A stretch of 15,441 nucleotides of DNA from a virus. A program made the position numbers and the translations under genes. Within the stretch, counting starts at the first letter, position 1. Every line of letters starts with the position of its first letter. The DNA lies in the UHGV virus genome UHGV-0099063; one strand, written 5' to 3'. Positions 1 through 2,202 of the stretch are shown in pieces. Below the pieces are notes generated by a model. It saw only the letters and a list, made by a program, of their open reading frames with translations. It searched no databases and was not told the DNA's origin.

Positions 1-160
1 ATACAGTCCATACACCAACAATATCTTTGTATGGTATGTAGCTGACACCTTCCAGGCCATCGTTACCACTTGGTCCAGTGATTAACACAGATGCTATAGC
101 AATAGCCCCGCCACTTATCGCCGCTATTACGCTATTTCGTAGTGCCGGTGACATTGCCAT
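1..160 (-). CDS. SAR endolysin (lysozyme, RrrD/R21-like), partial; C-terminus lies beyond the window start
   Basis: Minus-strand translation from ATG at 160-158 reads [53 protein letters not shown], matching the N-terminal signal-anchor-release region of lambdoid SAR lysozymes as recalled from E. coli RrrD. Overlaps the 3' end of the holin gene, as is usual in lysis cassettes. Confidence 0.85.
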
Positions 161-335
161 TCAATCTGTCCTCGCGCTCTTTGCGCTTGTAGTACCAGTT
201 GATGCCAAATGTGCCGACAGTACAAAGAATACCAATGATGACAGCCCAGTCATTCAGGGAGAGAATGCCACCCATCGCAGTCAGTCCTCCGAAGCTGTAA
301 CTGAACCATTCTCTGATTTTGTCCATACGGTACAT
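132..335 (-). CDS. class II holin (pinholin, S21-like) with dual-start motif
   Basis: 67 aa ORF with two predicted TM segments (Gly-rich [17 protein letters not shown], then [20 protein letters not shown]) and a charged C-terminus. N-terminus M-Y-R-M has two in-frame ATGs (335-333 and 326-324) separated by a basic residue, like the holin/antiholin dual start of lambda S and phage 21 S. Sits immediately upstream of the SAR endolysin. Confidence 0.8.
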
Positions 336-740
336 GCTCTACCCCTTCATTGAGGGGATTTGCTCTATTTAATTAGGAATAAGGTCGATTACTGATAGAA
401 CAAATCCAGGCTACTGTGTTTAGTAATCAGATTTGTTCGTGACCGATATGCACGGGCAAAACGGCAGGAGGTTGTTAGCGCAACCTCTTGCCACCCGCTT
501 TCACGAAGGTCATGTGTAGAAGGCCGCAGCGTAACTATCACTGATGAATTCAGGATAGCCAGTGGCTACGGCTCAGTTTGGGTTGTGCTGTTGCTGGGCG
601 GCGATGACGCCTGTACGCATTTGGTGATCCGGTTCTGCTTCCGGTATTCGCTTAATTCAGCACAACGGAAAGAGCACTGGCTAACCAGGCGCGCCGACTC
701 TTCACGATTATCGACTCAATGCTCTTACCTGTTGTGCAAA

Positions 741-782
741 TAAAAAAAGCCACCGTTGCAACTTAAGAGTCACTAACGGCAG
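741..782 (-). terminator. rho-independent terminator downstream of HNH endonuclease 1
   Basis: On the minus strand, hairpin GCUGCCGUU...AACGGUGGC (9 bp stem with two G-U pairs) followed by a run of seven U (plus 741-747 is AAAAAAA). Confidence 0.5.
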
Positions 783-791
783 CTTACATCT

Positions 792-1304
792 TTAAACGGT
801 ATGATATTTCATTCTGGCTGCCTCAAAAGCCGCAGCGGCAAGTTCGGCAGTGTCATGGTATCCAAGGTTAATACACTTTCCAGACGCATTAATTCTTGCT
901 CTCCATTTCCCGTACTTAGCATCCCAAGACACGCCACGGTATCCAGATTTATTATTCTTCTGAATTTTCCTGTTTTGCATATTTTCGGAATGAGTGACAA
1001 GACGAAGATTTGATATCCGGTTATCTGTTCTTACCCTGTTGATGTGATCAATAAAACCATCGGGCATGGTGCCATAAACAATCAACCATGCCAGTCTGTG
1101 AGCAGGGCATGCTTTACCATTAATCATAATCATTAAATACCCATCAGAATTTATTGATGAGCATTTCTTGAAAGCAAAACGAGAGTTCCATGTCAAAGTG
1201 GTCCTCTCTCTCCCCTGCCTCCATCTCCAGTGAAAGTCGCCTGATGATGGATTGTAATCAACAACAGAAAGCACCATTTCTGGCGTTAATTTTATTTCTT
1301 TCAT
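792..1304 (-). CDS. HNH endonuclease (HNH_3 motif plus AP2-type DNA-binding domain), homing-endonuclease-like
   Basis: 170 aa ORF with FIDHINRVRTDNRISNLRLVTHSEN (HNH_3-type catalytic motif) followed by GYRGVSWDAKYGKWRARI...LGYHDTAELAAAAFEAAR (AP2-like). Start 1304-1302 with AAGG 8 nt upstream. Lies between the candidate tR' and the lysis genes. Confidence 0.85.
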   Translation of the reverse strand: MKEIKLTPEMVLSVVDYNPSSGDFHWRWRQGRERTTLTWNSRFAFKKCSSINSDGYLMIMINGKACPAHRLAWLIVYGTMPDGFIDHINRVRTDNRISNLRLVTHSENMQNRKIQKNNKSGYRGVSWDAKYGKWRARINASGKCINLGYHDTAELAAAAFEAARMKYHTV

Positions 1305-1424
1305 CGCTTTACCTTAGGGATAGAGCCTGTTCGCGTAGATATGACAGCCAAGAGCGGAGCGATGTTTCCACCACCATATCTCAGGCCCATATCACTAAGA
1401 CTCTTGTTTTGATTGCACGCGAAT

Positions 1425-1449
1425 GCAAAAAAGCCCACAGGAGGTGGGC
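1425..1449 (-). terminator. rho-independent terminator just downstream of Q (candidate tR')
   Basis: Stem GCCCAC/GTGGGC (plus 1433-1438 and 1444-1449) with 5-nt loop; on the minus strand it is followed by UUUUUU (plus 1427-1432 is AAAAAA). Confidence 0.6.
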
Positions 1450-1491
1450 TTGTGATGGTTGCTGAATGCAAAAGCAGCAGCATATGTGAAT

Positions 1492-1522
1492 ATTATGGCT
1501 AAATGGCTAATTGCATGTCAAG
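1492..1522 (-). promoter_or_regulatory. candidate late promoter pR' overlapping the 3' end of Q
   Basis: Minus strand reads TTGACA (plus 1517-1522), 18-bp spacer, CATAAT (plus 1492-1497). Position directly after Q and about 40-60 nt upstream of the terminator matches the conserved Q-pR'-tR' arrangement of lambdoid phages. Confidence 0.4.
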
Positions 1523-2017
1523 ACTTTTAACAGCAACATGCTTAACTTTCTCAACACGTTTACGCATTTTGAAAGCATTTTGCATTGGTTGGTACAAAAC
1601 AAATAATGACGCTTTCAGGATATCGTCAATTTCGTTTCTACAGGTTGCCAGTGAAGGTTTTCTCCATCCCTCGCCACCACGCCCACACATCTTGCGTGGC
1701 TTTGCAGTCGCGTGATAGTAGGATGCAATTGCTCGCTTAGATGAACCATGAGCGTAGTAGCTGAGGAGGATGCCAAAGGCTTTCTTGTCAATGTACATGA
1801 CGGAATCGACGACCTGAGAAATCAACATTCCATCATCATCATTACACATTGGCCTTGTCATAACTCTTCCCAGCTCTACGCTCTCCATGAACTTCGCTAT
1901 TACGCTGCTCATGCGCTTTTCCAGGCGACCTGAATAAACCCATGCGCCCCACAGTTCAAGCCAGCCATTCAGCCAATCGTGCTGTTCTTTGGTGAGGTTT
2001 AGCTCTCTTATGCTCAT
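1499..2017 (-). CDS. Q: late-gene antiterminator Q (Phage_antitermQ family, QuuD-like motif)
   Basis: 172 aa ORF containing LELWGAW, recalled as a Q-family motif; last gene of the coupled nin operon (start overlaps ninH stop) and immediately upstream of the candidate pR'/tR'. Confidence 0.75.
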   Translation of the reverse strand: MSIRELNLTKEQHDWLNGWLELWGAWVYSGRLEKRMSSVIAKFMESVELGRVMTRPMCNDDDGMLISQVVDSVMYIDKKAFGILLSYYAHGSSKRAIASYYHATAKPRKMCGRGGEGWRKPSLATCRNEIDDILKASLFVLYQPMQNAFKMRKRVEKVKHVAVKSLDMQLAI

Positions 2018-2202
2018 CGTCTTCCCTTTTTGCCTGGCGTGACCATCAGGACGCCGTTAACTATTACGTGACGCTCGCCTTTGCTGTCTCGGTTGTACTT
2101 GAGCACTGTTCCTCTTGCGCAGGAAAGCATCCTCGCCACTTCGGTCTGATTGCCTCGTGTCTGGATAAGAAGCTCTGGTATCGTTTGAATTGTGGCGTTC
2201 AT
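2014..2202 (-). CDS. ninH: NinH
   Basis: 62 aa ORF MNATIQTIPELLIQTRGNQTEVARMLSCARGTVLKYNRD..., closely resembling lambda NinH as recalled (TIPDML...GNQTEVARRL.CSRGTVRKY). Start overlaps rusA stop. Confidence 0.8.
   Translation of the reverse strand: MNATIQTIPELLIQTRGNQTEVARMLSCARGTVLKYNRDSKGERHVIVNGVLMVTPGKKGRR

Follow-up and report, generated by a model that had tools for sequence, protein, structure and literature searches.

The first late lysis gene of the lambdoid prophage analysed here probably encodes a class II holin of the HP1 family with two start codons, which is preceded by a hairpin of the lambda sdi type and acts as a pinholin together with an R21-type SAR endolysin. The analysed DNA, called the window throughout, is the whole stretch of 15,441 nt from the virus genome UHGV-0099063, and all features of the cassette are collected in Table 1. 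Since lambda S and phage 21 S/R, the combination of a dual-start holin, a stem-loop occluding the SD and a SAR endolysin has belonged to the textbook knowledge of lysis regulation. What we describe is an ordinary lysis cassette of E. coli and Salmonella lambdoid phages, well supported and unsurprising to a specialist in phage lysis. The exact gene pair is already known, having been in GenBank since the entry of phage PS34, and the holin gene has long been annotated.

Table 1. Features of the late region and the lysis cassette, in window positions.
Feature	Position	Strand	Remark
Q antiterminator gene	2017..1499	minus	
Late promoter-like site, TTGACA-18-CATAAT	1492..1521	minus	3' end of Q gene
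Intrinsic terminator-like hairpin with U-run (tR'-like)	1431..1451	minus	downstream of late promoter
HNH endonuclease ORF, 170 aa	792..1304	minus	between late promoter/terminator and lysis genes
Second terminator hairpin with U-run (GCCGUUAGUGACUCUUAAGUUGCAACGGUGGCUUUUUUU)	742..790	minus	identical to BTP1 tR' region after Q
Untranslated late-operon leader	336..620	minus	285 nt, ~97% identical to lambda 44903-45185
Stem-loop CCCCU-CAAUGA-AGGGG	342..357	minus	3' arm = SD; homologue of lambda sdi stem-loop
5' arm CCCCU	357..353	minus	
Loop CAAUGA	352..347	minus	
3' arm AGGGG	346..342	minus	
Holin gene, long form	132..335	minus	67-codon ORF, ATG1 to stop TAG, putative antiholin
Holin gene, short form	132..326	minus	64 aa from Met4, putative effector holin
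ATG1	335..333	minus	
Tyr codon TAC	332..330	minus	
Arg3 codon CGT	327..329	minus	extra positive charge of long form
ATG4	326..324	minus	
Stop codon TAG of holin ORF	134..132	minus	
R21-type SAR endolysin gene, first 53 codons	1..160	minus	ATG 160..158; cut by window edge
GTG ORF, 91 aa	78..353	plus	antisense to holin gene

By its sequence the holin is assigned to the HP1 family and not to the families of S21 or lambda S. It matched Pfam PF16080 (Phage_holin_2_3, HP1 holin family) at residues 5-53 with 75.1 bits (E=4.4e-21), which is above the curated gathering score of 28.8 bits, and also PHROG 20 'holin'. The closest named relative is gp13 'holin' of Salmonella phage PS34 (GenBank AJ011580, 98.5% identical), and Hol of Haemophilus phage HP1 is 41% identical over the 41 aa of the TMD1-loop-TMD2 core (E=5e-6). 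With 19.5 bits the protein stays under the cut-off of 26 bits for PF04971 (Phage_holin_2_1), the family of phage 21 S, and the BLASTP comparison with S21 71 was not significant (E=0.27), so that the resemblance to S21 described below would be one of mode of working and not of sequence family. A PDB sequence search with the holin gave nothing meaningful among solved structures. The hydropathy profile contains two hydrophobic segments, W10-L27 and W30-Y49, the second being strongly and the first only weakly hydrophobic (mean Kyte-Doolittle hydropathy 1.02), while the C-terminal tail carries a net charge of +3. The topology check suggested in a preliminary description of this DNA thus returned two segments, and the Gly-rich TM1 reported there is found again in the four Gly and 50% G/A/S/T of TMD1. 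Being small, with a charged tail and two TMDs predicted as N-in/C-in from the hydropathy profile as the sole basis for topology, the protein classifies as a predicted class II holin. The plus-strand GTG ORF was rejected as a gene, as it mirrors the conserved holin coding sequence and is most likely spurious.

The endolysin start overlaps the 3' end of the holin gene by 29 nt in another frame (132..160, minus strand), and this overlap of holin tail and endolysin start is inherited as a unit even where the N-terminal halves of the holins differ. The start reads ATGGCAATG ('MAM', N-terminus MAMSPALRN); MAM as a second dual-start motif was rejected, since the second Met is not conserved in relatives (MAIS, MAVS and others). 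Phage 21 R is the prototype SAR (signal-anchor-release) endolysin. The N-terminus encoded in the window is identical to phage 21 R at 45 of 51 aligned residues, with six substitutions, and of the 167-aa endolysin from a locus with an identical cassette (L001) 165 aa matched the PDB entries 3HDE/3HDF of phage 21 R with ~96% identity (E ~1e-107); RrrD of DLP12 (4ZPU) was likewise matched by the full-length L001 protein. The SAR segment of 20 residues consists of 60% G/A/S/T and has a mean Kyte-Doolittle hydropathy of 1.97, with a maximum of 2.2 over 15 residues. Judged from the 53 codons inside the window and from L001 for the full length, the gene encodes an R21-type SAR endolysin (GH24 lysozyme), and the SAR partner proposed in the preliminary description turned out to be a near copy of phage 21 R. 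At the DNA level the cassette is ~96% identical in BTP1, ST104, SPN9CC, Emek, Oslo and many E. coli prophages, and for the SPN9CC endolysin a functional SAR domain has been reported. In full-length relatives the Rz/Rz1 spanin genes come next, downstream of the endolysin.

The holin ORF opens with ATG-TAC-CGT-ATG. Two in-frame ATGs split by Tyr-Arg, as had been noted before, are therefore present and they are kept across species; the extra positive charge ascribed to the longer form also holds, as the N-terminus of the long form has a net charge of +1 and that of the short form a net charge of 0, equal to S21 71 and S21 68. Homologous proteins with identities down to ~60% begin with M-[Y/Q/H/T]-R-M, and M-x-[R/K]-M or M-R-M was found in frame in 35 of 39 loci of other enterobacterial species (contigs, one genome per species, with Citrobacter, Raoultella, Yersinia, Kluyvera, Klebsiella, Atlantibacter, Pectobacterium and Sodalis among the genera). 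Among the dual-start relatives codon 2 is free (TAC, TAT, CAA, CAT, ACC, ACT, ACA, GCC or AAA, encoding Y/Q/H/T/A/K). The basic codon is present in all of them and shows only synonymous change (CGT, CGC, CGA, AGA) or Lys (AAA), and both ATGs are retained throughout, which together argues that codons 1-3 are translated in at least some of the products. Met4 is at least 90% conserved in the protein alignment (A1) and is retained in every dual-start lineage, even where the spacer is shortened to M-R-M. A single-start relative (L092) begins at exactly the Met equivalent to Met4, and the PF16080 profile match begins at residue 5, just past it. The sole good SD of the holin, AGGGG, has a distance of 6 nt to AUG1 and of 15 nt to AUG4, with 6-7 and 15-16 nt across the dual-start relatives and the same spacing in phage 21 S; 15 nt is a poor geometry for direct SD-guided initiation at Met4. 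In having two conserved in-frame starts within one to three codons and a basic residue between them, the holin corresponds to a dual-start gene. The pattern of conservation suggests that both starts are used in vivo, and by analogy the long form may act as an antiholin. Our literature search on the start codons of this holin subfamily found no paper.

Upstream of AUG1, and separated from it by the spacer UAGAGC, the transcript can form a hairpin with a 5-bp stem and a stability of -7.5 kcal/mol. The preliminary description had placed a hairpin upstream of the start, which stands, and had given its coordinates as 343-358, which are off by one base (357..342). It had also called the hairpin positioned like lambda sdi, and here the data go further: the ~97% identity of the leader with lambda extends through the 5' arm of the stem-loop upstream of lambda S, so that the element is a homologue. 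In the alignment the lambda side reads AAAUCCCCU-UAUU-GGGGGUAAGAC-AUGAAGAUG and the window side AAAUCCCCU-CAAUGA-AGGGGUAGAGC-AUGUACCGUAUG. As leader and 5' arm are shared with lambda, the window hairpin is the lambda element joined to another holin. According to PMC3369941, the stem-loop upstream of S in lambda determines how initiation is divided between the two starts; our definition of an sdi-type translational stem-loop comes from the same source, and the hairpin at 357..342 with the SD as its 3' arm has this structure. Its stability may likewise control the start ratio in the window. Taken alone, the hairpin is not statistically exceptional (z = -1.4 to -1.6, with 16-22 of 200 shuffles equally stable), and we accept it as real because it is homologous to the lambda stem-loop and conserved in relatives. 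In 81 near-identical loci variation is limited to the loop and one added G, the stem being unchanged.

The leader itself is common to many lambdoid phages, with a conservation of 93-99% in lambda, HK97, PS34 and BTP1 and of 75-81% in P22 and epsilon34. Folding of the 285 nt at 336..620 gave an MFE of -98.3 kcal/mol, which none of 200 shuffles reached (-71.9 +/- 4.7 kcal/mol, z = -5.6). The part upstream of the hairpin (372..620, minus strand) is strongly structured and contains several long hairpins, including a terminator-like one (…CAACCUCCUGCCGUUUUGCCC). An Rfam scan of window positions 1-2100 at E<=1 yielded noise matches only and no family for hairpin or leader.

In all 32 distinct dual-start start regions the SD forms the 3' arm of a hairpin when each sequence is folded by itself (-9 to -13 kcal/mol). 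Phage 21 S, found in phi458 with a 100% match, is among them, as are Stx-phage S and a DLP12-like S. Different lineages have different arms: CCCCU/AGGGG, CCCC/GGGG with another loop, CGCC(A)UCCGA/UCGGAGGUG, CACCCGC/GCG(A)GGUG, CCC(A)CCC/GGG(A)GGG and UCCGU/GCGGA. On average, the SD core paired upstream with an ensemble probability of 0.84 in 22 holin start regions vs 0.25 in the controls, which were 70 start regions of other long ORFs from the same loci (Mann-Whitney p=9e-11, a value that overstates independence because the holin sequences are related). For a 9-bp helix in an alignment of 20 sequences 91.7% of the cells were paired, compared to 34-47% in slid controls, and its closing pair alternates between AU, UA and CG. 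When a covariance model (R1) was made from the start regions of the 89-aa type, its matches were limited to its own lineage, S21 and, at a weak score, one further locus (L082); the window, lambda and Yersinia types were missed. An alignment by MAFFT that took in all lineages (A2) was not consistent with the structure. Since R1 missed other lineages, covariation across lineages is not countable on one alignment, and the cross-lineage support for the hairpin comes from the per-sequence folds and the contrast in SD pairing probability. An SD-occluding hairpin is present in the single-start relative L119 (Sodalis) and absent in the single-start relative L092. The hairpin is thus not strictly bound to dual starts and may serve a general throttling of holin translation, beside or instead of start partition.

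Compared with known systems, the cassette has the design of lambda S and phage 21 S/R, with the hairpin of lambda, the endolysin of phage 21 and a holin of the HP1 family. With lambda S it shares the ~97% identical leader, the 5' arm of the hairpin, a G-run SD 6 nt before AUG1, two in-frame AUGs and an extra basic residue in the longer product. In contrast, lambda S is an unrelated class I holin of 105/107 aa with three TMDs and has the soluble endolysin R as partner instead of a SAR type; its starts are two codons apart (M-K-M) and not three (M-Y-R-M), and its hairpin has a 5-nt loop, 6 bp and -9.7 kcal/mol, whereas 6 nt, 5 bp and -7.5 kcal/mol are found here. Phage 21 S is likewise a two-TMD class II holin of ~70 aa with an M-x-x-M-D-K-I start, charges of +1/0, the same SD-to-AUG spacings, an SD-occluding hairpin, a weak Gly-rich TMD1 and a strong TMD2, and R21 is ~96% identical to the endolysin here. 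It differs in the holin sequence, where similarity is not significant, in the periplasmic loop (~7 residues in S21 vs ~2, N-D, here) and in the hairpin arms (UCCGU/GCGGA). For phage 21 S two products, S71 and S68, have been described. HP1 Hol/Lys has in common with the window the family PF16080 and a holin gene overlapping the downstream SAR endolysin gene, but HP1 hol has a single start, no antiholin, 78 aa and a longer C-terminal tail; its SD is also predicted as paired, and a C-out activated topology has been proposed for the protein (PMC7312051). In LambdaSo, S(So)/R(So) again combine an HP1-family holin with alternative starts and a SAR endolysin, but S has 89 aa and three candidate starts and needs the extra membrane protein Lcc6. 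PS34 (gp13/gp19), ST104, BTP1, SPN9CC, Emek and Oslo carry effectively the same genes, with the same overlapping R21-like endolysin and the same hairpin except for loop or single-base variants. The upstream context also sets the window apart, which has another Q/HNH module and lacks the tRNA-Asn/Thr genes of BTP1.

In the mode of lysis that we propose, initiation at Met1 would give the 67-aa form, in which TMD1, weakly hydrophobic and Gly-rich, would leave the membrane more slowly owing to the one extra positive charge of Arg3, so that this form would be an antiholin, and initiation at Met4 would give the 64-aa form as effector holin. The open/closed equilibrium of the hairpin would set the share of initiation at each AUG and with it the timing of lysis. 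Once triggered, the holin would depolarise the membrane through small holes, and with depolarisation the R21-type SAR endolysin, already exported and tethered, would be set free and become active; the Rz/Rz1 spanins would follow after the endolysin, as in full-length relatives.

A pinholin cannot serve a soluble endolysin, and SAR endolysins function with large-hole holins too. The holin has a SAR endolysin as partner, and among related loci with a complete downstream gene 113 of 113 have an endolysin with an N-terminal hydrophobic segment, belonging to three subtypes (R21-like, 'KLSAAVVGLILAGASAP' type and P1 Lyz-like); no soluble partner was seen across these loci. Such exclusive pairing with endolysins of this kind fits the pinholin prediction, as a pinholin could not work with a soluble one, but it would also be tolerated by a large-hole holin and is no proof of pinholes. 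That the same holin and SAR endolysin work through large non-specific holes, the holin being of the canonical kind, appears unlikely to us, even if a SAR endolysin is released by any membrane depolarisation (as the cited descriptions also state) and no significant similarity links the holin to the prototype pinholin S21. Large holes agree poorly with the missing soluble partner across 113 loci and three endolysin subtypes, with the two TMDs including a weak Gly-rich TMD1 as in S21, and with two studied members of PF16080 that show pinholin behaviour: HP1 Hol is lethal without causing lysis or a leak of beta-galactosidase and has a SAR endolysin partner (PMC7312051), and LambdaSo S depolarises the membrane and combines alternative starts with a SAR endolysin partner (bioRxiv 10.1101/2024.01.23.576932). 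By homology to these two holins and by the exclusive endolysin pairing, the holin is probably a pinholin; a literature search on this holin subfamily found no experiment.

With respect to the dual start, it is conceivable but very unlikely that one start is used, most likely Met1, so that Met4 is an ordinary internal Met and the hairpin merely lowers the translation of a toxic protein. The SD located 6-7 nt from AUG1 vs 15-16 nt from AUG4, the SD hairpin in the single-start L119 and the one start and predicted paired SD of HP1 hol would all agree with a single start. Opposed to this are the retention of Met4 in all dual-start lineages including those with M-R-M, the start of L092 at this very position, phage 21 S, which makes both products from the same geometry, and lambda, where the homologous hairpin controls the proportion of two starts (PMC3369941). 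We can practically dismiss a role of the inverted repeat as a plus-strand terminator or as some other plus-strand signal at the DNA level: a simple scan does list 342-357 as terminator-like, followed by ATTTGCTCTA, but this T-run is poor and no U-run follows the hairpin on the sense strand, the sole plus-strand ORF at this place (78..353) is antisense to the conserved holin, and the element is homologous to the translational stem-loop of lambda with the SD as its 3' arm. Two starts under an sdi-type hairpin remain our preferred reading, and the preliminary description is borne out in all that concerns the sequence.

The upstream region points to an exchange of modules. On the minus strand the Q antiterminator gene, annotated as antiterminator Q family protein in the homologous regions of E. 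coli prophages, is followed by the late promoter-like site, the terminator, the HNH ORF, a remnant of a second terminator, the leader and the holin gene. The second terminator (742..790) comes without the promoter that BTP1 has, and the tRNA-Asn/tRNA-Thr genes located after the terminator in BTP1 are replaced by lambda-like sequence; ARAGORN found no tRNA in the window, though relatives have tRNA-Asn/Thr upstream. Some E. coli prophages (H62, H63) have the identical Q-HNH-leader module, down to position 333, followed by a lambda-family holin. In E. coli SBF22 the genes fused to this module at the holin ATG are those of a class I holin of the lambda family and of a GH24 endolysin, which shows an exchange of modules precisely at the start codon. 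The recombination joint lies at the hairpin loop or at the ATG.

Some further observations on the start region may be added. The 12 nt from Met4 on (ATGGACAAAATC, M-D-K-I; window 315..326 on the minus strand, 910..921 in the phage 21 S-type locus L121) are identical in the holin gene and phage 21 S, and outside of them the two genes are unalignable; the shared stretch may be a recombination joint or a convergence. Many prophages of Citrobacter, Kluyvera and Klebsiella (L087-L120, e.g. L088 1354..1632) have a holin of 89-92 aa (MTRMSTIYSRLSYGTG…) with TMD2 and tail of the window holin, another N-terminal half and ~25 extra residues between the TMDs. One of these (P0042) was matched by both PF16080 and PF04971, and by sequence they look like chimeras of HP1-type and S21-type holins. 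In three loci a second copy of the holin start region with hairpin, SD and ATG was found (L096 880..918; L090 and L116 670..708), scoring 35-47 bits with model R1 and located ~450-650 nt upstream of the real holin start. The duplicated start regions flank an ORF of ~65-90 aa (…MKEGYYWIQHVGVVQVAYYTNDTVDDLETGK…), which looks like a moron insertion with target duplication.

As a tentative generalisation, lambda leader and sdi hairpin could form a portable timing module that has been recombined at the loop or ATG onto unrelated holins, namely class I holins of the lambda S type and class II holins of the S21 and HP1 types, and the enteric HP1-family holins might in this way have gained a dual start that is absent in their Haemophilus namesake. 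If this is true, one RNA element would tune the antiholin-to-holin ratio for structurally different holins, and start partition would be governed by the RNA, independently of the coding sequence. With the lambda leader and hairpin in front of an unrelated class II holin, the cassette represents a natural experiment and is a suitable system for asking whether sdi-type partition of starts works irrespective of the gene that follows. Furthermore, the pinholin status of the enteric HP1-family holins bears on the annotation of hundreds of Salmonella and E. coli prophages.
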